A model generated the notes under the pieces. The model did not search any database. It was not told the origin of the DNA and saw only the letters and a program-made list of their open reading frames with translations. The position numbers and the translations under genes are program-made. From positions 1-32,518 of the IMG/VR virus record IMGVR_UViG_3300042392_001542: 32,518 nt of DNA, one strand, 5' to 3'. Positions 2,722-26,303 of this stretch are shown here, piece after piece. The stretch comes from a virus (lineage: Duplodnaviria > Caudoviricetes). The number at the start of each line of letters is the position of its first letter. Position 1 is the first letter of the stretch.

Positions 2722-3084
2722 GGGGTCGTAATGGTCTCGACGGGTAGTGATTAGTAGAAATGCATGCGGCGTGGTGCCTTAAAGCCAAAACAAGATAACT
2801 GACAACAGTTACATTCCTGCATATACGCCTTCAATGGCATATGCATTAGCTTAATTTAGAAGGAGCTATCTGGGCGAGTCCTCTCTGGTGGGACAAACCC
2901 TGAAAAGAAAGCCAGATATGAGAGTGCGGCTGAACTAGTCACGCTTAAAGAATAATAAGTTTGCTCATACTTTAATTTTGACTTTTTATTCAAAGTATGA
3001 TAAGATAATATAAGAAGCTAAGCATGTAGATGTTTTTATGGGATAGCTATTCGGACAGGGGTTCAATTCCCCTCGACTCCACCA
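2722..3084 (+). ncRNA. ssrA: transfer-messenger RNA (one-piece)
   Basis: 5' GGGGTCG pairs with 3' CGACTCC-ACCA including the G3:U alanine identity pair; T-arm AGGGG-TTCAATT-CCCCT; ATAACT|GAC resume context; tag reading frame 2801-2854 = (A)DNSYIPAYTPSMAYALA*. Confidence 0.95.
2978..3006 (+). promoter_or_regulatory. putative sigma-A promoter inside the tmRNA gene
   Basis: TTGACT(2978-2983)-17 bp-TAAGAT(3001-3006) with TG at 2998-2999, same architecture as the other promoters. Confidence 0.5.
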
Positions 3085-3675: not shown

Positions 3676-3984
3676 ATGGACTTAAAAAAACAAGACGAAG
3701 TAATTAAACTTAAAGAAGGTCAAAAAGTATTTGTTCCTAAAACAACATTTGCTTTTGATACAGAACTAATTGAAGTATTTAATGTATTTCAAGATGACGG
3801 AAGTGAGGCTGTCTTATTAGTAGATAAGAACGGTCACATTATTATGCGCGCAAGAGGAATGGTATTTGGTGATATTGAAATCGCCAAACAATACTATCTC
3901 AACTGGTTGCAAGTAATGCATGATAAGTTAGCGGATAGCTGGAAACCCGCCGAAGCACCAGCACCAACCACTGAAATTAAATAG
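3676..3984 (+). CDS. hypothetical protein (102 aa)
   Basis: AAGGAGGT RBS. Confidence 0.8.
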   Translation: MDLKKQDEVIKLKEGQKVFVPKTTFAFDTELIEVFNVFQDDGSEAVLLVDKNGHIIMRARGMVFGDIEIAKQYYLNWLQVMHDKLADSWKPAEAPAPTTEIK

Positions 3985-3996
3985 TGGTTCCAAAAT

Positions 3997-4025
3997 TTGT
4001 ATTTCGAATACGTATATGTTATAAT
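3997..4025 (+). promoter_or_regulatory. sigma-A promoter with extended -10, flanked by an inverted repeat
   Basis: TTGTAT(3997-4002)-17 bp-TATAAT(4020-4025), TG at 4017-4018; ATACGTATA/TATACGTAT at 4008-4016 and 4025-4033. Confidence 0.8.
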
Positions 4026-4031
4026 ATACGT

Positions 4032-4228
4032 ATAAGAAATGATTCTGGTGCGAAGACTCAAGGCGTAAGCCTATTAGTCATAAGAGTTTGAGTTCTCTCG
4101 ATAGAAGAGACAAACACGGAAAGCACTTAAGAGAAACCGCCAGAGATGGTTCCTACTGACATGGCTTTAGGAGCTATTAAAACGAGAGTCGTAAAGTCGT
4201 CCTCGAGGGTTAAAGTCCCTTCTTTTTT
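4032..4228 (+). ncRNA. unidentified structured ncRNA or cis-regulatory leader (~195 nt)
   Basis: Non-coding, GC-elevated, lies between a promoter and a terminator; nested stems 4044-4050/4138-4144, 4061-4072 (GUAA tetraloop), 4086-4115, 4146-4155/4168-4177. Confidence 0.65.
4205..4228 (+). terminator. intrinsic terminator
   Basis: GAGGG-TTAAAGT-CCCTT followed by CTTTTTT; same design as the terminator at 5991-6016. Confidence 0.65.
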
Positions 4229-4243
4229 ATAAAGAGGTATTGT

Positions 4244-4810
4244 ATGCTATTAATATTATGCGGCAAGACTGCCAGTGGTAAGAATACATATAGAGAAGTT
4301 TTAATGCAAAGAAATCCTTCTTGGCATAGAGCTGTCTCTCACACAACAAGACCAATGAGAAATGGTGAAAAAAATCACCTCCAGTATCATTTTCTTGAAA
4401 CTGTTTCATTTATTACAATGGCGATACAAAACTTCTTTATCGAAACAACAGATTACAGATTATCTGACTATACAGATGATAAATGGTATTACGGATTAAC
4501 CAAGTCTGAAGTTGATAATGATAAAATAAACTTAGCAATATTAAATCAAGATGGTGCAAAAAATGCTATTAAACATCTTGGCAAAAATAAAGTTAAGGTT
4601 ATTTACCTTCACAGTGATAGCGAAGAACTTCGCCGCAGAGGTCACAAAAGACTAGATGACCCAATTAGATTTGAAATGCGGCTAAGAGATGATGAGATAC
4701 AATTTGAAGATATAGAAAAAATAGCGGATTTAGTTCTTAAAACAGATTGCTCAAATGAGCAGCATGAGCTTAATTACCGCACAATAGAGAAACTATTGGA
4801 GGAAAATTAA
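4244..4810 (+). CDS. gmk: guanylate kinase-like nucleoside monophosphate kinase
   Basis: P-loop GKTASGKNT, signature VSHTTRPMRNGE, YHF and YYG motifs. Confidence 0.88.
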   Translation: MLLILCGKTASGKNTYREVLMQRNPSWHRAVSHTTRPMRNGEKNHLQYHFLETVSFITMAIQNFFIETTDYRLSDYTDDKWYYGLTKSEVDNDKINLAILNQDGAKNAIKHLGKNKVKVIYLHSDSEELRRRGHKRLDDPIRFEMRLRDDEIQFEDIEKIADLVLKTDCSNEQHELNYRTIEKLLEEN

Positions 4811-6001: not shown

Positions 6002-6016
6002 ACACCCTTCTTTTTT
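5991..6016 (+). terminator. intrinsic terminator
   Basis: GAGGGGT-AAAC-ACCCTTC followed by TTTTTT. Confidence 0.8.
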
Positions 6017-6029
6017 ATTCTCCAAAGAT

Positions 6030-6058
6030 TTGAGTTTTGTTAAAAGTTATGTTACAAT
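6030..6058 (+). promoter_or_regulatory. sigma-A promoter with extended -10
   Basis: TTGAGT(6030-6035)-17 bp-TACAAT(6053-6058), TG at 6050-6051. Confidence 0.75.
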
Positions 6059-6089
6059 TATATTATAGAAAAAACAAGTGAGGTGCTAT

Positions 6090-8726: not shown

Positions 8727-8755
8727 TTGCAAAACAACATAGACTATGATATAAT
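8727..8755 (+). promoter_or_regulatory. sigma-A promoter with extended -10
   Basis: TTGCAA(8727-8732)-17 bp-TATAAT(8750-8755), TG at 8747-8748. Confidence 0.8.
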
Positions 8756-10021: not shown

Positions 10022-11260
10022 ATGTTAGTCACAAAACGCAACGGAAACGTTGTTCCTTTTGACGCGTATAAAATTGAAAACGCAATACAAAGGGGACTCA
10101 AGAAAATTGGAGTGGTAGATACTATCATTCCAAAAGCTATTGCTAATGAGGCAACTGTTCAAATTCTTGGCGGAAAAAATAAAGAAACTATTCATGTTGA
10201 TGAAATTCACAGAATAGTAGAAAATGTTATTATGAGTAAGGGACTTCATGACCTTGCAAGAGAATATATTACATATCGCTTTCAAAACAAGCAAAGCGTA
10301 TTTAAGAAGAGGGCAAATTTAAAACCATACGAATACCCTGAGCTAATCGAATATGTTAATGCAATTCGTCACTCATATTGGATTCATACTGAGTTTAATT
10401 ACTCAAGTGATATACAAGATTTAAAAGTAAACTTAACCCAAGGTGAAGCAAATATAATCAAGAACGCAATGCTAGCCATCGCGCAAATTGAATTACAAGT
10501 AAAAACCTTCTGGGCTAAGATTGGAGACCGTTTACCGAAACCCGAGATTCAAGCAGTCGGTGTAACTTTTGCTGAATCAGAGGTGCGGCACACAGACGCA
10601 TACTCAACACTTCTTGAATTAGCCGGACTTAATGATGAGTTTAAAACACTTATTCAAGTTCCAGCTATCAAAAAGCGTATAGAGTATTTAGACAAATCAA
10701 TTCAAACACCTATTGATGATAAAGATTATTTTAAGAACATTATTTTATTCTCTATGTTTGTTGAAAGTGTTTCTTTATTCTCTCAATTCTTAATTATGAT
10801 GTCTTTCAATAAACATAAAAATGTTTTGAAGGGTATTTCAAATGCTGTTGAAGCAACTTCTAAAGAAGAAGATATTCACGCAAAATTTGGATTTGATATT
10901 GTAAATATTATTAAGCAAGAAAATACAGGTTGGTTTAATGAAATTATGATAGATCAAGTTATCGAGCTGGTTAAACAAGCCTATGAAGCTGAGGCCGGTA
11001 TCGTTGACTGGATCTACGGGAATATTGATTTAGACTTTTTACCAAAAGCAGTAGTAAAAGAATTTGTAAAAGACAGATTTAATCAAGCTATGAGAGCAAT
11101 TGGTTTAGAAAATGTATTTGAAGTAAATACCGAAATGGTAAAACAAACTGCATGGTTTGCAGAAGAAATGTTAAGTACGAAAAATGTGGACTTCTTTGTA
11201 AAAAGAAGCACGGCTTATTCAAAGAAAACTAAGTCATTCACTGAAGACGACCTTTTCTAG
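10022..11260 (+). CDS. nrdB: class I ribonucleotide reductase beta subunit with N-terminal ATP-cone (NrdBi / class Id-like)
   Basis: ATP-cone VTKRNG..VPFD..KI; ferritin-like ligand motifs QIE, ESEVRH, FVE, EEDIH; C-terminal DFFVKRSTAYSK; ATG 10022. Confidence 0.92.
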   Translation: MLVTKRNGNVVPFDAYKIENAIQRGLKKIGVVDTIIPKAIANEATVQILGGKNKETIHVDEIHRIVENVIMSKGLHDLAREYITYRFQNKQSVFKKRANLKPYEYPELIEYVNAIRHSYWIHTEFNYSSDIQDLKVNLTQGEANIIKNAMLAIAQIELQVKTFWAKIGDRLPKPEIQAVGVTFAESEVRHTDAYSTLLELAGLNDEFKTLIQVPAIKKRIEYLDKSIQTPIDDKDYFKNIILFSMFVESVSLFSQFLIMMSFNKHKNVLKGISNAVEATSKEEDIHAKFGFDIVNIIKQENTGWFNEIMIDQVIELVKQAYEAEAGIVDWIYGNIDLDFLPKAVVKEFVKDRFNQAMRAIGLENVFEVNTEMVKQTAWFAEEMLSTKNVDFFVKRSTAYSKKTKSFTEDDLF

Positions 11261-11269
11261 GAGGCTTAT

Positions 11270-12922
11270 ATGGCATTTGAATGGTTAAACAAAGAGTCGC
11301 GCAAGTTTTTGTCACGCGGCTACTTACTGGAAGGACAAACTCCAGAAGAAAGAATTAGACAAATCGCAAACAAGGCTGAGGAATATTTAGGTATTCCAGG
11401 CTATGCGGATAAATTTTATGACTATATGGGTAGAGGATTTTTCTCGCTGTCTTCACCAGTGTGGTCTAACTATGGAATACAAAGAGGATTGCCTGTATCG
11501 TGCTTCGGTTCTTACATTGAAGACGATATGCAATCTATCTTATATGGACATGCAGAGAATGGTATGCTTATGAAAGGTGGCGGTGGAACATCCGGCTACT
11601 TTGGTGAGTTACGTGGACGCGGAGCTCCAATTAAAAATAGTGGAGAATCCAGTGGCGCAGTTCATTTTATGAAAATGTATGACACTTTAGCTTCAGTTGT
11701 TTCCCAAGGTAGCGTGCGTAGAGGTTTCTTCAGTGCCTATTTACCTATTGAACATCCAGACGCAGAAGAGTTCTTAGATATTGGCACCGAAGGAAACCCT
11801 ATTCAGGGACTTACTCACGGTATCACAGTAACAGACGCTTTTTTAGAAAAGGTAAAAGCTGGCGATAAGGATGCAAGAAAGCTCTGGGCAAAAGTATTAC
11901 AGCGCAGAAGTGAAATTGGTTATCCATATATCTTATTTACAGACAATATGAATAAAAATAAACCTGATATTTATAAAGATAAAGATATGAAAATCTTTGC
12001 TAGTAATATGTGTTCTGAAATTGCATTGCCATCTAATCCAAATGAAACTTTTACTTGCGTATTATCTTCGATTAACTTACTTCACTGGGAAGAGATTAAA
12101 GAAACAGATGCAATTGAAACGCTTACTTATTTCTTAGATACAGTCGTCACAGAATTTATTAATAAAACAGAAGGTAAAGAATACCATAAGAGAGCAAGAA
12201 ACTTTGCTATCAATCATCGGGCCTTAGGTCTTGGTGTTCTTGGTTGGCACTCGTATTTGCAATCAAATATGCTTTCGTTTGAAAGTCGTAGTGCGGCTAA
12301 AAAGAATTTAGAGATTGCAAAAACTTTAAAAGAAAGAACTTATAAAGCTTCGACTGAACTAGCTGTAAAGTATGGAGAACCAGAACTATTAAAAGGTTAT
12401 GGTCGCCGCAACACAACGTTGATGGCTATTGCTCCTACAAAAAGCTCATCTTCAATCTTAGGTCAAGTATCTCAATCTATTGAGCCAGAGTTCTCTAACT
12501 TCTATGTGAAGGACTTGGCTAAATCTAAAACTACAATTAAAAATCAATACCTTAAAAAGTTATTGAAAAAATATGATAAGGACACTGACGAAATCTGGGA
12601 GTCTATTCAAAAAGCAGACGGCTCAGTACAACACTTAAAATTCATGACTCAAGAAGAGCGCGAGGTCTTTAAAACGTTTGCGGAAATTAATCCACATGCA
12701 ATTATTGACCAAGCTGCCGTGCGTCAAGAATATATCGACCAAGCCCAATCATTAAACCTTATGATGCCAGCAAACGTGCCTGTAAAAGAAATCAACGCAC
12801 TTATGCTTTACGCTCATGATATGGGTATCAAGACTTTATACTATCAATTTGGTATGAGTCAGGCGCAAGAACTTTCTCGTAAAAAAGTTATGAGTGAAGG
12901 CTGCGCTAGTTGCGAAGGTTAA
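11270..12922 (+). CDS. nrdA: class I ribonucleotide reductase alpha subunit, short form without ATP-cone
   Basis: VSCF, GGGTS, SNMCSEI (Asn-Cys-Glu), IAPT, TLYY, C-terminal CASC. Confidence 0.95.
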   Translation: MAFEWLNKESRKFLSRGYLLEGQTPEERIRQIANKAEEYLGIPGYADKFYDYMGRGFFSLSSPVWSNYGIQRGLPVSCFGSYIEDDMQSILYGHAENGMLMKGGGGTSGYFGELRGRGAPIKNSGESSGAVHFMKMYDTLASVVSQGSVRRGFFSAYLPIEHPDAEEFLDIGTEGNPIQGLTHGITVTDAFLEKVKAGDKDARKLWAKVLQRRSEIGYPYILFTDNMNKNKPDIYKDKDMKIFASNMCSEIALPSNPNETFTCVLSSINLLHWEEIKETDAIETLTYFLDTVVTEFINKTEGKEYHKRARNFAINHRALGLGVLGWHSYLQSNMLSFESRSAAKKNLEIAKTLKERTYKASTELAVKYGEPELLKGYGRRNTTLMAIAPTKSSSSILGQVSQSIEPEFSNFYVKDLAKSKTTIKNQYLKKLLKKYDKDTDEIWESIQKADGSVQHLKFMTQEEREVFKTFAEINPHAIIDQAAVRQEYIDQAQSLNLMMPANVPVKEINALMLYAHDMGIKTLYYQFGMSQAQELSRKKVMSEGCASCEG

Positions 12923-12923
12923 T

Positions 12924-13020
12924 TAATATTAAACACAGGTTTCTTGGAAAAGGAGGAGCTGGTTTAAAAATACAAAAACGCCCACTATTTCATCTTGGCG
13001 TTTTATGGAGGAATTCTATG
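12924..13020 (+). repeat. cassette leader element copy 1 (two hairpins + RBS + ATG)
   Basis: First 46 nt match copy 2 at 45/46; second hairpin AAAACGCC/GGCGTTTT; ATGGAGGAATT before the start codon. Confidence 0.92.
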
Positions 13021-14307
13021 AAAAATAAAAATCTATTTGCCTTTCTAGTGACACTAACTATGGTTTCGTGTGCGTCACCGTCCTCTTCCTCATCTGAGGG
13101 AGGAATATCGATACCAAATGATGTCCTCATGATGGCCCAAAACGAACCAAGTAGGATGTTTCTTTCGGCTCTGATGATGCCGACATCCTCGTCCAGGACT
13201 GAGACGGTTGCATCTGTTGACTCAAGGACAGTTAGTACTTGGTCAAACACTCTCGGTGACTGGAGCGCAGAATACACAGACATCTTCGACTTCGAGGCCT
13301 CTGGACTACTGAGGTCTGAGGGGTTCGGCACTGACCAGGCTAAGATTTACGCAGAGGTTGACCTAGTCAACTTCGATTCAGAAGTAATATACGATTCCGG
13401 ACCTCAGTATCAATCGTATAGAACAGCATTTGAAAACGAGAGAATCGTCGCCTATTATGACGGCTCAGAGGTATTTCTCGACCTAACGGACGCAGAAGGC
13501 TTCGCATTCGTTTTTGCTCACAGCGGAATCGCTCCCTCGTGGAGCTACTACTATAACTCAATAGAAGGCATCGATAGACCGTCAAAGCTCAGGTTCAACG
13601 CCAGGGAAATAATCGAGAGCGGTCTTCTACCCTTATTCCCAGGTCGCAACGACCAGCAGGTCTGTATAAAGATGTGCTTAGACGACCCAAGCACTGAAGA
13701 GATTGAGTGCAACTCACCTTGCGAAGAAGAACCGGAGCAGGAGCCGAGAGGTCCTCTAACTCAGGAAGAAATCGAGGCATTCGCAGCTTCAATTCTGCCG
13801 ATGTTCGATTATAATTTACTCCAGAGCGAGATATCTGGCACAAAGCTGTCGATAACCTACGAGGCTACTCAGGATGACCTTGTCCAAATGTTTGAGACGG
13901 GATACCTCGGTGGCTACAGCAGGGAAGACTTCGACGAAGAGTACCTCCAACAACTTGACCAGTGGGTAGCTGATGCCGTGGCTGGTTTTCAAATCAATAG
14001 GATGTTTGCATCGGTTTCAGTCGACCTTCTCACTAGCGTAGTAGAGAGCCTAACAATAGACATAGACGTGTCAACGGGCTACTCTTACGACGGGGAAATG
14101 TCGTTCTACAACCCGGAAAGTATTAATGCCGACGAGTTTGGCTTCGAACAGTACCCATATTCTTGGTCCTACTCGACAAGTTACGACATAGAAATATCTT
14201 TGGAAACTTCGGAGCTGTCAAATGAAATACCTATCGCCCTACCTGTAAATAAGGAAGAGTACGAACTCATCGAGCTCGGCCACCAACCTGAAGAAGTTTA
14301 CTATTAA
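13018..14307 (+). CDS. acidic lipoprotein of unknown function, probably horizontally acquired
   Basis: GGAGG RBS and ATG 13018; signal peptide with lipobox MVSC then a Ser-rich linker; sampled lines 42-53% G+C. Confidence 0.82.
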   Translation: MKNKNLFAFLVTLTMVSCASPSSSSSEGGISIPNDVLMMAQNEPSRMFLSALMMPTSSSRTETVASVDSRTVSTWSNTLGDWSAEYTDIFDFEASGLLRSEGFGTDQAKIYAEVDLVNFDSEVIYDSGPQYQSYRTAFENERIVAYYDGSEVFLDLTDAEGFAFVFAHSGIAPSWSYYYNSIEGIDRPSKLRFNAREIIESGLLPLFPGRNDQQVCIKMCLDDPSTEEIECNSPCEEEPEQEPRGPLTQEEIEAFAASILPMFDYNLLQSEISGTKLSITYEATQDDLVQMFETGYLGGYSREDFDEEYLQQLDQWVADAVAGFQINRMFASVSVDLLTSVVESLTIDIDVSTGYSYDGEMSFYNPESINADEFGFEQYPYSWSYSTSYDIEISLETSELSNEIPIALPVNKEEYELIELGHQPEEVYY

Positions 14308-14309
14308 AA

Positions 14310-14404
14310 TAATATTAAACACAGCTTTCTTGGAAAAGGAGGAGCTGGTTTAAAATATAGAAATGTCCACAATTCATCATAGACATTTCATGGAGGAATT
14401 GATG
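14310..14404 (+). repeat. cassette leader element copy 2 (two hairpins + RBS + ATG)
   Basis: Direct repeat of 12924-13020; second hairpin GAAATGTC/GACATTTC. Confidence 0.92.
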
Positions 14405-15499
14405 AAAAAACGATTATTAGCCGTTGCCTTGCCGTTATTAGTATTAGCCTCATGTGTAGGTATGGATATGAGCTCCTCAACAGGAAGTGAATCTTCAGAA
14501 CCAGGACCAGTTGGACTTATTCCTGAAACGCTTGTCGTTCAGTTTGTACCATCTACGTCTATTGACTCAGCTTTATTGACTAAAATTAAAGGTTTAGAAG
14601 ATATGCTAGAACTCGAATTAGAAGATGAAGGATTTGATATTAATGTAAATATTAGTATCGGTACTTCTTATGCCTCAGTTATTGAAGCAATGGCCTCAGG
14701 TCAAGTTCACGCAGGTTTCTTAACAGCTCAACAATATGCATTTGCAACAACAGAGTTTCCTGGCAAATTTGATGTCCAGTTAACTTCTGTACGCAGTGCC
14801 TATGCAGCTCAAATTGATGCGCAAGGAAATGAAATTAAAGATGTGGATACAATTATTGATAATGTAAACGATGCGGCTTACACAGCAGCATTACATCCAA
14901 CTGTAAAAGCTAGCTCTTACTATTCTGGTTTATATATTAAAGCAGATAAGTTAGCAGAATTTGAAGCACAAGGTATGGATTGGCTTATTGGTAAAAAAGT
15001 TGCAACACAAAGCAACACCTCAGGTTCTGGTTATTTATACCCATCATTTATGATGCATGAAAATGACTTGACATTTGTTGATGCAAATCCAAATGTTGCA
15101 AACCGTGAAGTTGAACGTAAAATTGTTGGTGGTCACCAAAACGCATTGTTAGCTTTACTTAATGGTGAAGTTGATGCAACATTTACATTCTTAGATGCTC
15201 GTCTACATGCAAGTGCTTTCAACGCTTGGTTAGAAGCAAACCCAGGTAAAACTCAATTTGCTGAAACTAAATTAGTTGGTTTAACTACTCCAATCTATAA
15301 CGATACAATTACTGCAATCGCTGGATTAAATCCTGAATTAAAGGCCGCAATCCAAGACGCATTTATCAATATCGTTGCTACAACTGATGGCGCAGCCGCA
15401 TTAGCAATTTATAACCATACCGGTTATTTAAAAGCTGTAGATGCTGACTATCAAGGTGAAAGAGATTTCTATCTCTTCTTACAAACCTTACAAGGCTAA
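14402..15499 (+). CDS. phnD: phosphate/phosphite/phosphonate ABC transporter substrate-binding lipoprotein
   Basis: Lipobox LASC; FVPS, SYASVIEAMASGQV, SNTSGSGYLYP, GGHQNALLALLNGEVDA, IYNDTI motifs; operon context. Confidence 0.88.
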   Translation: MKKRLLAVALPLLVLASCVGMDMSSSTGSESSEPGPVGLIPETLVVQFVPSTSIDSALLTKIKGLEDMLELELEDEGFDINVNISIGTSYASVIEAMASGQVHAGFLTAQQYAFATTEFPGKFDVQLTSVRSAYAAQIDAQGNEIKDVDTIIDNVNDAAYTAALHPTVKASSYYSGLYIKADKLAEFEAQGMDWLIGKKVATQSNTSGSGYLYPSFMMHENDLTFVDANPNVANREVERKIVGGHQNALLALLNGEVDATFTFLDARLHASAFNAWLEANPGKTQFAETKLVGLTTPIYNDTITAIAGLNPELKAAIQDAFINIVATTDGAAALAIYNHTGYLKAVDADYQGERDFYLFLQTLQG

Positions 15500-15519: not shown

Positions 15520-16284
15520 ATGATTAAATTTGTAAATGTTTCAAAGACATACACAGGCGGAGTTCAGGCATTGAAAAACGTCAATATTCAAATCAGTGAT
15601 GGCGAATTTGTAGCCATAATCGGCCTGTCTGGAGCGGGGAAATCCACGCTCCTCAGGTCGATTAATAAAATGCAAACAATCACTAGTGGTGATATATTTA
15701 TAGACGAGGTAAATATATCTTCATTATCTGGTAAAAAATTAAGAGAGTTTAGAAGAAACATTGGAATGATATTTCAATCTTTTAATCTCGTAAAAAGAAT
15801 GTCAGTATTTAATAATGTTCTTACTGGAAGAGTTGCCTACCATCCAACAGTAAAAGCGCTTTTCGGTTTATTTCCAAAAGAGGATAAACTAATTGCACTT
15901 CAAGCATTGGAAACAATGGGTATATTAGAAAAAGCATTTGTTAGAGCAGATAAGCTTTCAGGTGGTCAACAACAAAGAGTTGCACTTGCTAGAGCCTTAA
16001 CTCAGAAACCTAAGATAATTTTAGCCGATGAGCCAGTGGCATCTCTTGACCCTATTACTACAATTCAAGTCATGGACGACTTTGCCCGCATCAATAAAGA
16101 TTTAGGTATTACTATTGTTGCAAATATGCATCACGTAGATTTAGCTTTAAAATACGCGACAAGAATAATTGGAATTAAAGCAGGAGAAATAGTTTATGAC
16201 GGTCCTTCTAAAAATATTAATCAAGATATACTTCTGAACATCTATGGAAGAGCTTTAAAACATAATGAGCTCCTGGGACAATAG
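15520..16284 (+). CDS. phnC: phosphonate ABC transporter ATP-binding protein
   Basis: GLSGAGKSTLLR, IGMIFQSFNLV, LSGGQQQRV, ILADEPVASLDP. Confidence 0.93.
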   Translation: MIKFVNVSKTYTGGVQALKNVNIQISDGEFVAIIGLSGAGKSTLLRSINKMQTITSGDIFIDEVNISSLSGKKLREFRRNIGMIFQSFNLVKRMSVFNNVLTGRVAYHPTVKALFGLFPKEDKLIALQALETMGILEKAFVRADKLSGGQQQRVALARALTQKPKIILADEPVASLDPITTIQVMDDFARINKDLGITIVANMHHVDLALKYATRIIGIKAGEIVYDGPSKNINQDILLNIYGRALKHNELLGQ

Positions 16285-16285
16285 T

Positions 16286-17095
16286 ATGATAAAATATATT
16301 TTACCAAGTGGCAAAACAATTAATCAACCATTTAATAAAGTATGGTATGTGCTTGCAGGTCTTGCGGCCATCTTATTGTTCTTTTGGACATTTATAAACT
16401 TTGACCCTAGAAACATTAACCTATCCGAAATGACTATCATTATAGAAAAACTATTTACACCAAAAGATACAAGAACCTGGGAAGATTATTTTAACTATAT
16501 GTTTTCATTATGGCCTGCTCTCTTTAGTACTTTACAAATGAGCTTTGCTGGAACTTTGATTGGTTCAGTATTTGCTGTTCCGGTAGCAATATTATCCTCA
16601 AAAAATATAGTTAAAAAAACTTACATATATACACCAGCGAGAATGCTAATGAACCTAATAAGAACAATACCTCTTTTGGTATTAGCGCTTCTTGCAGTCT
16701 TCTTTGTTGGAATTGGAATACTCCCAGGAATTATATCAATATCGGTATTTAGTTTTGGTATTATGTCAAAGATGTTATATGATATAATAGAAACGGTTGA
16801 CATGAGTTCTTTTGAAGCGCTTGAGTCAACTGGCGCAAATAAAACGATAGCATTTAGATATTCTGTTGTTCCGCAAATACTACCAATATATATTAGTTAT
16901 ATGATATACATATTTGAAATAAATGTGCGGTCCTCAGCAATACTTGGTTATGTTGGCGCTGGTGGAATAGGTTCAATTATAAAAGATAATGTTCTATACA
17001 ACTACGATAGAGTTGGAGCCGCAATAATATATCTGTTTTTTGCGATACTAATCATTCAGCTAATATCAAATTATGCTAGAGGTAAATTACAATGA
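16286..17095 (+). CDS. phnE: phosphonate ABC transporter permease
   Basis: Multi-TM; RTIP, EALESTGA, FEINVRSSAILGYVGAGGIG; ATG 16286 directly after the phnC stop. Confidence 0.9.
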   Translation: MIKYILPSGKTINQPFNKVWYVLAGLAAILLFFWTFINFDPRNINLSEMTIIIEKLFTPKDTRTWEDYFNYMFSLWPALFSTLQMSFAGTLIGSVFAVPVAILSSKNIVKKTYIYTPARMLMNLIRTIPLLVLALLAVFFVGIGILPGIISISVFSFGIMSKMLYDIIETVDMSSFEALESTGANKTIAFRYSVVPQILPIYISYMIYIFEINVRSSAILGYVGAGGIGSIIKDNVLYNYDRVGAAIIYLFFAILIIQLISNYARGKLQ

Positions 17096-17904
17096 CAATA
17101 GAAAAAGTATTGAAGAAAGAACCGAAGAGATGGTTGATAAACTCAATCTTTTTTATAGTCATTACAACTATGCTAATCTTTTCTTTTACAGACTCCTCAA
17201 TAAATTGGATTAGGTTTAATACATTTTGGATTTCTTTAAGAAGCATAGCAAGAGGATTATCAAATATACAATTCGATTTTTTGCTAGGTCGAGGCGTTTA
17301 CGCATTTGAAGAGGGTGTCATATATCTAACAATAGAGACTTTGGCAATAGCATTTATCGCTACATTTTTAGGCGCAATACTTTCACTACCATTTAGTTTT
17401 TTAGCAAGTAAAAATATAGTTGGAAATAAGATTGCACGGTTTGGAGAAATACTTTTAATTTTAGTTAGGGTGTTTCCTGAAATAATACTTGCATTAATAC
17501 TTGTAAAAGGATTTGGAATAAATCCCTTAACCGGTGTTTTAGCAATAGGAATACACTCAATAGGTATGATAGGTAAACTATTTGCAGAGTCAATTGATAA
17601 CATGGACAAAGCCCCATTAGAAGCACTTGATGCAGTCGGTGCAAATATATGGGTTAAAATTAGATACGGGATTATGCCGCAAGTAATAGCAGAGTTTTCT
17701 TCTATTGCGCTTTATAGATTAGACATCAACGTTCGCTCAGCTACCGTGTTAGGTATAATTGGTGCGGGAGGAATTGGTGCTTCACTAATTCTTGCCAGCG
17801 AAAACTGGAACTGGGATATACTTGGAACTATACTATTAGCAATAGTGGTTATGGTTATATCAGTAGACGTAATATCTAGCTTCTTAAGGAATAAGTTAAT
17901 TTAA
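17092..17904 (+). CDS. phnE: phosphonate ABC transporter permease (second subunit)
   Basis: RVFPE, GKLFAE, EALDAVGA, LDINVRSATVLGIIGAGGIG; ATGA overlap. Confidence 0.9.
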   Translation: MTIEKVLKKEPKRWLINSIFFIVITTMLIFSFTDSSINWIRFNTFWISLRSIARGLSNIQFDFLLGRGVYAFEEGVIYLTIETLAIAFIATFLGAILSLPFSFLASKNIVGNKIARFGEILLILVRVFPEIILALILVKGFGINPLTGVLAIGIHSIGMIGKLFAESIDNMDKAPLEALDAVGANIWVKIRYGIMPQVIAEFSSIALYRLDINVRSATVLGIIGAGGIGASLILASENWNWDILGTILLAIVVMVISVDVISSFLRNKLI

Positions 17905-17920
17905 TCTATTCTGTTAAAAT

Positions 17921-17949
17921 TAGACTTTTTCCTAAATGTTTGTTATAAT
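17921..17949 (+). promoter_or_regulatory. sigma-A promoter with extended -10
   Basis: TAGACT(17921-17926)-17 bp-TATAAT(17944-17949), TG at 17941-17942. Confidence 0.8.
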
Positions 17950-17981
17950 TATAGTATAGAAAAAAATAAAAGGAGTCAATA

Positions 17982-18491
17982 ATGACAGCAGAAGAAACTT
18001 ATAATTTATTTATTGAGTGTAGAGATGAGCTTATTGCACTTGGCTATGACCTACCAACAAATCTATCATTTAGTATGAACTATAACTCCGTATCAACAAT
18101 GGGGGTTTGCGTCAGAAGTGGAGATCGATATACTATTAAAATATCAAAATTTCACTGGGAAAATAATGGACCAGAAGAAGTTAGAAATACAATTATGCAT
18201 GAGTTATCTCACGCATTAGATCGAAATAAACATTCACACGACCACAACTGGATGCGGCTAGCTAGAGAGATATCTGTCAAAACTAACACCTCTATTAAAA
18301 TTTATGCTGAATCCACTGAAGGTGAAGAAGTCGCGGCTATGAACAGGGCTGTTGCTTATACAGATTGTCATAAGTGTAGTAATAGACATTATATATTTCG
18401 TAGGACAAAGGTATACAAAAAACAAGCAGAAGGCTACTACTGTAGTACATGCGGTGAAGATGCAAAACTTACTTTTGTAAAGCTTAAATGA
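17982..18491 (+). CDS. SprT-like zinc metalloprotease with C-terminal zinc ribbon
   Basis: TIMHELSH (HExxH), downstream HDHNW, CHKC...CSTC. Confidence 0.85.
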   Translation: MTAEETYNLFIECRDELIALGYDLPTNLSFSMNYNSVSTMGVCVRSGDRYTIKISKFHWENNGPEEVRNTIMHELSHALDRNKHSHDHNWMRLAREISVKTNTSIKIYAESTEGEEVAAMNRAVAYTDCHKCSNRHYIFRRTKVYKKQAEGYYCSTCGEDAKLTFVKLK

Positions 18492-18515
18492 ACTATCAAT
18501 TTTGGTTAGTAGAAA

Positions 18516-18544
18516 TTGACTTTTATTTTATTTTATGGTAAACT
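18516..18544 (+). promoter_or_regulatory. sigma-A promoter with extended -10
   Basis: TTGACT(18516-18521)-17 bp-TAAACT(18539-18544), TG at 18536-18537. Confidence 0.75.
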
Positions 18545-18636
18545 TATTATGTAAAAGAAAATACTTTTACTGCTAAAGGATAAGTAGAGCCCCTTATCAA
18601 ATAGCAAATATAAAAAAGAGAACAGGAGGAAAAAAG

Positions 18637-18924
18637 ATGGAAAAAATTACGCTAACAGCAAAGACAGCTTCCGTTATTAGTTTTTTACAAGCTAATCACG
18701 GCCAATACTTCGGTGACGAAATCGCTGCCGCAGTCGGTTTAAATCCACGAGGAATTCACGGTGTTCTGAATTCATTAGTGAAGAATGATTTGATCGAAAA
18801 GGTTGATACCGAAAGAACGATTTCTACAGACGGAGTCGATGTCGTCAAGGAATATAAAGCATATAACCTTACACCTAAAGGTGAGACATTCGACGTAGAC
18901 GCAGCGACAGTTGACGCTGAATAA
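18637..18924 (+). CDS. winged helix-turn-helix DNA-binding protein
   Basis: EIAAAVGLNPRGIHGVLNSLVKNDLI helix-turn-helix and YNLTPKG wing. Confidence 0.78.
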   Translation: MEKITLTAKTASVISFLQANHGQYFGDEIAAAVGLNPRGIHGVLNSLVKNDLIEKVDTERTISTDGVDVVKEYKAYNLTPKGETFDVDAATVDAE

Positions 18925-19939: not shown

Positions 19940-20914
19940 ATGGATTTGACTAAATTAAAACCACATATTATTTCGGAAAGTCTTCATGATAAAATCTTTT
20001 TATTTTATGGTGAAGCAGGTACACGCAAAACAACAGTAGCCGCAGGATTCGAAGGTAGCTTATTAGCAGCTTTTGAAATCGGTTATAAGTTTATTGACGG
20101 TGTTCAAGCCCAGCCAATTCAAAGCTGGTCAGACTTCAAACAATTTTTAAGAGAATTAAAAAGAGATGAAGTTCGTTCTATTTATAAAACAATTATAGTC
20201 GATACAGTTACCTTAGCTTACAGCGCATGTATGGAATATGTCTTAGGACAATACGGCGTTACTGATGCTGGTGATCTTGGATTCGGTAAAGGTTGGAGAG
20301 CGATTCGTAAAGAATTTGAAAAATCAATACTATCTATTCCTCAAATGGGCTACGGGTTAGTCCTAATTGCACACGCAGACGAAATTGAAGAAAAGAACAA
20401 CATTAAATCAAAAGTAGATATCGATAAGCGTCCAGCCGCAATCATTAAAGGTTTAGCGGACTTTATTTTCTATGTTCGTAAAGAATATAAAGATAATACA
20501 GATGGCGCTTTAACTACTGAAAACCAAACAGTTTTTGCTTATAACCAATTAGTAGAAATTGAAACTAAAACACGTTCTCGTTATTTCTCAACAAGGTTTG
20601 AATTTACTTATGATAACCTTAAAGCAGAAATGAAGAAAGCAATTGAAGAACAAAAGAAAGTTGAAGGCATTGTAACTGTTCAAGAAAAAGAATACAGTTT
20701 ACATGAACTTCAAGAAGAAGATTTTGAACAATTAAGACTTGATGTAGTTAATCTTGCTAAAGAGCTTTTAGAAACAGATGCATTTCAAATTGTTGAACAA
20801 AAAATAATTACAATTATGGGTGCGGAAATTAAACTTAGCCAAGCAAGTAAAGTATACGAACCACAACTTAAAATACTTCAACAAGAACTTTTAGACATTA
20901 AAGTAAACCTTTAA
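19940..20914 (+). CDS. AAA_24 / Sak4-like P-loop ATPase (YorG-like)
   Basis: FYGEAGTRKTT, LLAAFEIGY, TIIVDTV Walker B, GFGKGW, LVLIAH. Confidence 0.78.
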   Translation: MDLTKLKPHIISESLHDKIFLFYGEAGTRKTTVAAGFEGSLLAAFEIGYKFIDGVQAQPIQSWSDFKQFLRELKRDEVRSIYKTIIVDTVTLAYSACMEYVLGQYGVTDAGDLGFGKGWRAIRKEFEKSILSIPQMGYGLVLIAHADEIEEKNNIKSKVDIDKRPAAIIKGLADFIFYVRKEYKDNTDGALTTENQTVFAYNQLVEIETKTRSRYFSTRFEFTYDNLKAEMKKAIEEQKKVEGIVTVQEKEYSLHELQEEDFEQLRLDVVNLAKELLETDAFQIVEQKIITIMGAEIKLSQASKVYEPQLKILQQELLDIKVNL

Positions 20915-25744: not shown

Positions 25745-26245
25745 ATGATTAATTGGAAATTAGATGAATTATTAAAAGTACAAATGGAAGTGCGCGACGA
25801 AGTAATGAAAAAGCTGAAAACGGCTCCTACTAAAGAAGACCACACTCTTGCTATGCATATTGAATTGTTTGAACTCTTCAATGAAATTGGAACTTGGAAA
25901 TGGTGGAAACATTCACACATCCCAAAGAAAGATAGAATTCTTGATGAGCTAGCAGACGTTATTGCTTTCTTCTTATCTTATATGCTTTTACTTGAACCAA
26001 CCAAACAGGCGCAAGCAGCGTTATGGATGGATGATAACTTTGAAAAGTTTATGGACCCAGAAATTGATGTAATTAGATTTGTATCTGAAAGCGTTACAGC
26101 TGGAACTCAACTTCCACCAATGGTGTTAATGCTAACTGGTTTGGCCGCAACAATTAAAACACTTAATTGTGAATGGACTGAAATCATTTATGCTTATAAC
26201 CAAAAGGCTAAAGTCAATATCGAACGACAAAGAAATAACTACTAA
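25745..26245 (+). CDS. dut: dimeric (all-alpha) dUTPase
   Basis: IELFELFNE, WKWWK, DELADVIAF, K...N..RQ..NY motifs of the dUTPase_2 family. Confidence 0.82.
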   Translation: MINWKLDELLKVQMEVRDEVMKKLKTAPTKEDHTLAMHIELFELFNEIGTWKWWKHSHIPKKDRILDELADVIAFFLSYMLLLEPTKQAQAALWMDDNFEKFMDPEIDVIRFVSESVTAGTQLPPMVLMLTGLAATIKTLNCEWTEIIYAYNQKAKVNIERQRNNY

Positions 26246-26246
26246 T

Positions 26247-26275
26247 TTGACTTTTATCTAAAGTCATGTTATAAT
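26247..26275 (+). promoter_or_regulatory. sigma-A promoter with extended -10 and an overlapping inverted repeat
   Basis: TTGACT(26247-26252)-17 bp-TATAAT(26270-26275); TGACTTT-N5-AAAGTCA at 26248-26266. Confidence 0.82.
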
Positions 26276-26303
26276 TATTGTATAAACTTAAAAGGAGAAA
26301 AAA

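Follow-up and report, generated by a model that had tools for sequence, protein, structure and literature searches.

A two-hairpin element, probably an RNA leader, at a lipoprotein-swapping slot behind nrdA in a phage lineage

We analysed a 32,518-nt stretch of DNA from a virus of the Caudoviricetes (positions 1 to 32,518 of IMG/VR record IMGVR_UViG_3300042392_001542; hereafter the window), in which an element of about 95 nt occurs twice downstream of nrdA, each time in front of a gene for a predicted lipoprotein. The element is a real, previously undescribed RNA leader at a slot in which lipoprotein genes are swapped; its parts each have known analogues, making it a new combination rather than a new class. 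Its two-hairpin fold is conserved on the mRNA strand with real covariation. The reading that we favour, at slightly better than even confidence, is that the element is an intercistronic mRNA leader of this uncultured phage lineage, which would stabilise the cargo message and tune its translation within a slot for swapped host-derived genes. No published description of the element or the slot was found in a literature search of limited scope.

The two-hairpin element and its covariation

An initial annotation of the window had reported two copies of the element. Both were located at the positions it gave, the first after the nrdA stop codon (12920-12922) and the second after the stop codon (14305-14307) of a gene that we call geneX. 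The features of the slot are as follows.

11270..12922, + strand: nrdA, the fixed left border of the cargo slot
12924..13020, + strand: element copy 1, with hairpin 1 at 12929-12967, hairpin 2 at 12975-13004, the ribosome-binding site (RBS) at 13007-13012 and the AUG at 13018
12945..12955, + strand: the invariant 11-mer UGGAAAAGGAG in copy 1, complementary to the 3' tail of host 16S rRNA and lacking a usable start codon
12988..12993, + strand: hairpin-2 loop motif of copy 1, complementary to the start region of its own gene over 6 bp here and 7 bp in five other copies
13018..14307, + strand: geneX, a GC-rich gene for a 429-aa lipoprotein
14310..14404, + strand: element copy 2, with hairpin 1 at 14315-14353, the 11-mer at 14331-14341 and hairpin 2 at 14360-14389
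14373-14379 and 14392-14397, + strand: loop motif and RBS, respectively, of copy 2
14402..14458, + strand: start of phnD, encoding a 19-residue signal peptide and lipobox common to the PstS-like gene of locus L015
14402..15499, + strand: gene for a PhnD-family phosphonate/phosphate-binding lipoprotein (PF12974; best host match 63%)
15520..17904, + strand: phnC, phnE and phnE (ATP-binding cassette (ABC) ATPase and two permeases), with no element between these genes
17921..17949, + strand: promoter-like site of sprT, the fixed right border of the cargo slot
17982..18491, + strand: SprT-like gene (PF10263), the first conserved gene past the slot

The first 46 nt of the two copies are identical at 45 positions, in agreement with the initial annotation. 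A 19-nt pattern allowing up to 3 mismatches matched the window twice, each time at an element copy, with 0.01 matches expected by chance. No Rfam family (4227 families) matched either copy at E up to 5. A promoter scan gave no + strand site inside either copy, in agreement with the initial annotation, which saw no sigma-A promoter in the element. The gene bracketed by the copies is compositionally foreign, as had been proposed: its GC content at third codon positions is 0.52, compared to 0.16-0.36 in the other 40 open reading frames (ORFs) examined.

Covariation was assessed on an alignment of seven distinct copies from five phage lineages. Over the two basal helices that had been named, 95.7% of 117 cells were paired and 7 pairs showed two-sided changes. 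None of 500 shuffles scored as high, and slid controls were 33-51% paired. In hairpin 2, the 8 bp, the 14-nt loop and the three two-sided changes between the window copies were all recovered; across the seven copies this hairpin was 100% paired, with compensatory changes at 5 of its 8 pairs. Hairpin 1 was weaker (91.8% paired), with one or two two-sided pairs depending on the alignment of the divergent L015 copy. Three cells at the named pairs were one-sided changes to G-U on the top strand, and two C-A cells in the RNAalifold consensus stem from the L015 row, which is out of register. The fold drawn for hairpin 1 held at its base, where an AAC/GTT pair stands beside a bulged A in 7 of 7 copies, but not at its GNRA-capped top stem; the latter was rejected, having no compensatory change in seven copies and a pairing of 87.9%, equal to the shuffle mean. 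The RNAalifold consensus leaves a 12-nt loop open in hairpin 1. Folding z-scores relative to shuffles were -2.42 for copy 1 and -3.85 for copy 2. When folded as DNA, the top strand was more stable than the bottom strand in 4 of 4 copies tested, which points to the mRNA strand. Collectively, the covariation test bears out the proposal that the structure is under selection.

Sequence features bearing on mRNA stability and initiation

The longest invariant run in the seven copies is the 11-mer (P 0.002, column shuffle). The 16S tail of the host was recovered from 2 of 5 genomes. Its pairing with the 11-mer region is worth -10.5 to -14.3 kcal/mol across all seven copies, compared to -9.3 to -10.5 kcal/mol for the real RBS. 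In each copy this pairing is at least as strong as that of the copy's own RBS. The 24 window RBSs examined span -7.2 to -13.4 kcal/mol, and the 11-mer values fall inside this span or exceed it. Complementarity to 16S accounts for 10 of the 11 invariant bases. The only candidate start codons are CTG or TTG at 1-3 nt from the 11-mer, and the real AUG lies 56-62 nt downstream; a leader peptide was rejected for want of a usable start. The last nrdB codons (window 11250-11260), adjoining the nrdA RBS, are complementary to the 11-mer and form its second-best partner in the window (-10.9 kcal/mol). As a post hoc observation, this complement at the nrdB-nrdA junction is kept in 4 element-bearing loci and absent in L016.

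In Bacilli, a strong Shine-Dalgarno (SD) sequence without a start codon stabilises the downstream mRNA, according to the cited sections of PMC3997798 and PMC2358910. RNase Y and RNase J are present in 5 of 5 host-genus genomes. By its sequence the element would qualify as such a stabilising SD (STAB-SD), combining 16S complementarity, the lack of a start and a host with both nucleases. As those sections describe them, the STAB-SD of cryIIIA and polypurine 5' stabilisers likewise place a strong start-less 16S-complementary stretch next to a stem-loop and ahead of the RBS proper, and their host lineage also has both RNase Y and RNase J. In contrast, the present element lies between cistrons and needs a cut to reach a 5' end, is partly paired in a hairpin, and is followed by a second covarying hairpin.

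The loop of hairpin 2 pairs with the start region of its own gene over 7 bp in 5 of 7 copies, leaving the RBS in the connecting loop. In our judgement of the geometry, this pairing fits an H-type pseudoknot. The two exceptions are the copies before geneX, which has its own start context. Among 12 other window genes used as a control, none reached 6 bp of loop-start pairing. Host leaders also pair over the AUG, with at least 7 bp in 13 of 15 bmp leaders and at least 5 bp in 15 of 15 pstS leaders, these host leaders being interrelated.

Cargo layouts, gene capture and the host lineage

Of 79 loci retained from a search with NrdA, 8 had at least 93% identity. The element lies directly after the nrdA stop codon in 6 of these 8; L016 and L017 are without it and have other neighbours. 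These element copies were located via NrdA, not via the sequence of the element. A metagenome scan gave the element in 5 of 46 loci, the other 41 being discarded by eye because the hairpins were missing. The scan also contributed L127, whose element is the same as that of L019.

Between nrdA and the sprT promoter, five cargo layouts were found, as had been anticipated for relatives carrying the same element. The window and L014 have element, geneX, element, phnD, phnC, phnE and phnE. L015 and L020 have element, geneX, element, a pstS-like gene and bmp. L018 has element, a gene for a Ser-rich lipoprotein with a lamin-tail domain, and bmp. L021 has element and bmp, as do L019 and L127, the last with an additional bmp remnant. 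Three lineages carry one element and two carry a pair. The initial annotation had placed an element ahead of each cargo unit. The first gene behind an element is indeed always a predicted lipoprotein gene, but bmp in L015 and L018 is preceded by a short RBS spacer only, and second cargo genes often stand behind a bare RBS. The pstS-to-bmp spacer of L015 (4153-4177) resembles the RBS region of host pstS and can form base pairs over its AUG.

The window covers part of a large phage genome, and related fragments are 18-43 kb long and rated 11-35% complete; one or two elements were seen per fragment. A covariance-model search of 95 sources gave no copies past the seven (next best 19.4 bits), none was found in 4 related phage records or in additional viral scans, and 50,697 GenBank phage records gave no match of note. 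One extra viral-scan match, in L099, was rejected because it lies inside coding sequence.

In L127, a 1,081-nt stretch of the slot matches bmp of host genome G297 at 98% identity, and there is no other match in 12 kb. The L127 bmp does not resemble the host gene over its first ~100 nt, where successive 50-nt blocks hold 21 and 26 differences; its first 50 nt match the phage L021 signal peptide with 2 differences. The 5' crossover lies in conserved codons just past the lipobox, and L019 has the same one (213/213 nt identical). On the 3' side, the host stretch passes the stop codon and ends in the loop of the host's downstream hairpin, where ~3 shared bases join it to what remains of an older phage bmp, 248 nt that agree with other phage bmp ends at 184-190 positions. 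We take this joint as real because an assembler would need a long shared word to make it. Judged by these matches, L127 carries a host bmp spliced behind the phage's own leader and signal peptide, with both crossovers outside the element, which argues against an attC-type site. The 98% identity suggests a capture recent enough to point to G297 as the donor genome and hence the likely host. In G297 (L268), a response regulator and a sensor kinase separate bmp from pstS, which is 3 kb away on the opposite strand, suggesting that both cargo genes come from one host region.

A signal peptide is also shared across different cargo. The window PhnD and the L015 PstS-like protein have the same 19-residue signal peptide, with 8 synonymous changes in 57 nt, and different mature domains; host PstS proteins carry a different signal peptide. 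When the window and L015 were compared in 100-nt bins, the bin containing copy 1 had 30 differences and the other 31 bins had 0-7 each. By this nucleotide comparison the element is shown to be exchanged between strains as a ~90-nt patch. Hairpin 2 of window copy 1 is nearest to that of L019 (3 differences), that of copy 2 is nearest to L015 copy 2 (0 differences) and L018 (5 differences), and the two window copies differ from each other at 14 positions. These distances indicate that the window copies are two alleles, each also occurring singly after nrdA, that were brought into tandem. A single duplication within the window, which the initial annotation had named as a possible objection, does not describe them, since both are old alleles also found singly in relatives. 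The compensatory changes hence predate the tandem arrangement.

Homologues of PhnD, Bmp, PstS and geneX occur in one host genus at 63%, 63-84%, 56-79% and ~40% identity, respectively, the last over the C-terminal part. The genus is in the same family as Bacillales bacterium UBA6120, a family that we take to belong to the order RFN20. The element was compared with native host leaders. The bmp donor (98%) has a different leader, and host phnD, pstS and geneX-family leaders scored no more than 17.6 bits with the covariance model. Among 151 genomes (26 candidates scored per genome), 21 gave weak model matches, the best at 33.4 bits; 15 of these 21 were inspected and the layout of two hairpins, RBS and ORF was absent. 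In 18 host-genus genomes, 4 gave matches of up to 26.5 bits and no copy was found, and the hairpin-1 pattern occurred in 0 of 401 genomes. The element is not the native bmp leader, as seen in a direct test with the donor in hand. It is probably not the phnD leader either, an indirect result obtained with the closest host phnD (63% identical) rather than the true donor. The objection that the element might be simply the 5' untranslated region of host phnD thus lost ground, the element being absent as a host leader in the genomes searched.

A hairpin downstream of host bmp shares an 8-nt basal arm with hairpin 1; the pattern is present in 9 of 18 genomes, in 7 of them beside bmp by coordinates. 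Derivation of hairpin 1 from this host hairpin is not claimed: the 8-mer occurs 4 times in the window and alignment scores are within the shuffled range. Scores for the phage's own terminators likewise fell within the shuffled range, and this source was rejected. Two other structures were seen in the host lineage. All five phnD leaders read (L157:455-550, L182, L183, L185 and L186) share a hairpin whose loop carries the motif CUGGAC, a candidate host cis-regulatory RNA; that of L157 had no Rfam match of note. In the bmp leaders (L193-L207), two hairpins follow the -10 box and together make a candidate host RNA motif: the first is long and varies in sequence, and the second has the SD in its loop and covers the AUG by pairing.

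The cargo mostly belongs to phosphate, phosphonate and nucleoside uptake classes. Phage-borne pstS, phnD and phnE have already been reported in the cited sections of PMC11310336 on phage phosphorus-uptake auxiliary genes. Unlike in the systems described there, the uptake genes alternate here with Bmp-family and other lipoproteins in one slot, with a shared leader and phage signal peptides. The product of geneX has no Pfam or PHROG family. It has distant homologues in the host genus, and no close homologue that could mark a donor was found in 351 genomes of the family at E 1e-45. Its predicted structure is an open beta-sheet fold of moderate confidence (predicted local distance difference test 67.6). 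Foldseek gave no usable match (TM ≤0.2). Comparison with LppX gave Z 8.6 and a root-mean-square deviation of 5.5 over 155 aligned residues, tied with outer-membrane barrels, and an LppX/LolA-like identity of the model is a lead only.

Proposed mechanism, alternatives and setting of the slot

From sequence, the element is likely to be an mRNA stabiliser and translation signal rather than a site-specific recombination site. We propose a cut in the nrd transcript, probably made by RNase Y, within the AU-rich stretch that separates the stop codon from hairpin 1. A 30S subunit seated on the start-less 11-mer, together with hairpin 1, would then block RNase J in STAB-SD fashion, leaving a protected cargo mRNA. 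The initiation rate would be set by an H-type pseudoknot in which the loop of hairpin 2 pairs over the AUG. Together, phage RBS, signal peptide and element may form the slot for host-derived genes. For new cargo, the entry route would be recombination anchored by homology at the RBS, the lipobox or conserved codons, and the 3' joint would be illegitimate. A second copy of the element would arise by joining the alleles of two lineages and would then serve as a PeSL-like homology pair, PeSL being the promoter(early) stem-loop of T4-type phages. The proposed entry route resembles homology-facilitated illegitimate recombination and C-terminal displacement in type VI secretion effector-immunity arrays and Rhs systems. 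As described in the cited sections of PMC5361080, these have a constant 5' anchor and an illegitimate 3' joint, and the 3' piece of the old gene is pushed downstream, as in L127. In contrast to those systems, the constant part here is a phage leader plus signal peptide and the incoming DNA is a host uptake gene.

A candidate recombinase for the captures lies 2 kb downstream of the slot and would probably assist cargo entry:

19940..20914, + strand: Sak4-like single-strand annealing protein (phrog_124, E 7.9e-33)

Phages with Sak4 are highly mosaic and the fidelity of Sak4 is called unknown in the cited sections of PMC2896510.

Several observations weigh against this proposal. The seven copies are few and related to each other; this kinship inflates the shuffle tests, and the covariation figures are counts, not probabilities. 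Predicted access to the 11-mer is partial, with a mean unpaired probability of 0.36-0.66, and the 16S pairing of some window RBSs is just as strong, at up to -13.4 kcal/mol. Loop-start pairing reaches only 6 bp in window copy 1 (P 0.12), L015 copy 1 has none (P 0.76), and the single P values of the other copies are only 0.014-0.053, with two loop alleles represented. The bmp genes of L015 and L018 sit behind another gene with no element of their own, and the 3' capture joint is known from one contig only. At 324 aa, the Sak4-like protein exceeds the 290-aa limit used in the cited part of PMC2896510.

Alternatively, the element could be mainly a PeSL-like shuffling cassette, in which homologous recombination between copies would bring in or remove circles of element plus gene, with the role as RNA coming second. 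We regard this as doubtful. The arrangement element-geneX-element in the window and L015/L020, set beside one element and no geneX in L018, L019/L127 and L021, has the topology drawn for ORF192 of RB49 in the cited part of PMC2839356. The nearest neighbours of hairpin 1 and hairpin 2 differ, which suggests crossovers or conversion inside the element. As described in the cited sections of PMC2839356 and PMC4122927, PeSLs similarly span ~100 nt from stop codon to SD/start, contain a stem-loop and lie in hypervariable regions, with a gene between two copies in one phage and a single copy in a relative; here the downstream gene also differs. However, the strong sigma-70-type promoter of PeSLs is absent from the element and its hairpins are not called as + strand terminators. 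No more than 2 copies per fragment were seen, in fragments covering a minor part of each genome, compared to ~50 PeSLs per genome (PMC2839356, same sections), the cargo is host lipoprotein genes and the host lineage is Bacilli. An exact empty allele of the window strain was not found, the mapped captures cross over outside the element, and homologous recombination does not need compensatory changes. The PeSL analogy of the initial annotation therefore stands for topology and not for promoter or, in the fragments seen, for copy number. Most likely, the leader doubles as a homology patch, which lets it act in part as a PeSL would although it is not a member of that class.

A leaky terminator or attenuator pair, with hairpin 1 protecting the 3' end of the nrdA mRNA and hairpin 2 plus a short U-run lowering read-through, is unlikely. 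Both hairpins do lie 3' of a stop codon, the GC core of hairpin 2 is followed by 3-4 U in most copies, and the hairpin that follows host bmp genes has the same 8-nt basal arm as hairpin 1. Yet an A-run, not a U-run, follows hairpin 1, neither hairpin appears in a + strand terminator scan, and local alignment of hairpin 1 to host and phage terminators stays within the shuffled range. The conserved 13-14-nt loop and the invariant 11-mer would be left unexplained.

It is also quite unlikely that the element is a translational switch controlled by a protein bound to the invariant loop, or by a nutrient state that shifts hairpin 2 between pseudoknot and open forms. Such control would suit the invariant 11-mer in the consensus loop, the competing folds over the AUG at -2 to -7 kcal/mol, and the uptake cargo, whose host leaders also pair over the AUG. 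On the other hand, the same element serves unrelated cargo, no Rfam family was hit at the threshold given above, and 16S complementarity already explains 10 of the 11 invariant bases. A CsrA site was rejected, as CsrA was found in 0 of 5 host-genus genomes.

An attC-like single-stranded DNA (ssDNA) recombination site, served by an integrase elsewhere in phage or host, is highly improbable and largely refuted by the mapped crossovers, which are scattered over the RBS, the lipobox and the inside of bmp rather than fixed at one base. As in the integron attC arrays of the cited sections of PMC5027507, a hairpin follows the stop codon with an AAC/GTT pair beside a bulged base in all copies and promoterless genes lie behind one promoter, and an enzyme could be unseen in fragments this incomplete. 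Nevertheless, the cores fit RYYYAAC at only 6/7 and GTTRRRY at 5/7 positions, the core-to-core span is 41 nt compared to 57-70 for small attC sites (PMC5027507, same sections), and it is the top strand that folds better here, the opposite of the attC preference for the bottom strand. None of 5 related fragments (11-35% complete) and none of 41 window ORFs gave a match to PF00589, host genomes not having been searched for IntI. Of the two roles first suggested, the portable leader stands in that the element moves as a unit between strains, and the ssDNA site does not.

We also consider a wider and rather doubtful view, in which the element is a promoterless, recombinase-free counterpart of the integron. 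It would be a portable expression and secretion platform that combines a start-less SD stabiliser with a pseudoknot switch copying the leader logic of host nutrient lipoproteins, and pairs of elements would shed and take up element-gene circles. If so, any host surface gene recombined behind the element would at once be stabilised, regulated and exported.

The remaining features of the window concern the setting of the slot. Besides nrdB-nrdA, the window carries genes for DnaB, primase and DNA polymerase III alpha. Upstream of the slot are:

8727..8755, + strand: sigma-A-type promoter-like site (10/12, extended -10) found by the promoter scan upstream of ligase-trx-nrdB-nrdA
10022..11260, + strand: nrdB, ribonucleotide reductase small subunit with an N-terminal ATP cone (PF00268, PF03477)

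The site at 8727..8755 is the likely source of the transcript running into the element, and read-through would carry it to the cargo. The ATP cone sits on the small reductase subunit and not on the large one. The repeated promoters of the phage are a promoter-like repeat with an extended -10, present in five copies (1167-1231, 6012-6076, 17903-17967, 18498-18562 and 26229-26293), and not the two-hairpin element. The phage encodes a transfer-messenger RNA (window 2722-3084, 133.7 bits). A 259-nt intergenic region (3984-4244), after a promoter-like hairpin, has strong predicted folding (-71 kcal/mol) and no Rfam match. A short structured leader at 18560-18615, before a 95-aa gene at 18637, is kept in L018 and L021. 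The heptamer AAACACA, with which hairpin 1 starts, also occurs 3' of the stop codons of phnD (15500) and of a 298-aa gene (19879), both times ahead of an SD-like stretch. Past the slot, the sprT leaders of L015 (5340-5369), L021 (3575-3603) and L127 contain a 15-nt stretch identical to the RBS region of host bmp, which the window sprT leader is without. L021 has a second insertion site after sprT (4120-4653), with an AT-rich (21% GC) gene for a 177-aa lipoprotein-like product that is not in the window.

Captured host genes need expression and export signals of the phage, and the route by which they are acquired, rarely visible, is visible in this slot. The slot shows a phage keeping its structured leader, RBS and signal peptide while the mature domain changes. 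The stabiliser and pseudoknot readings make two predictions that are testable in a Bacillus reporter.

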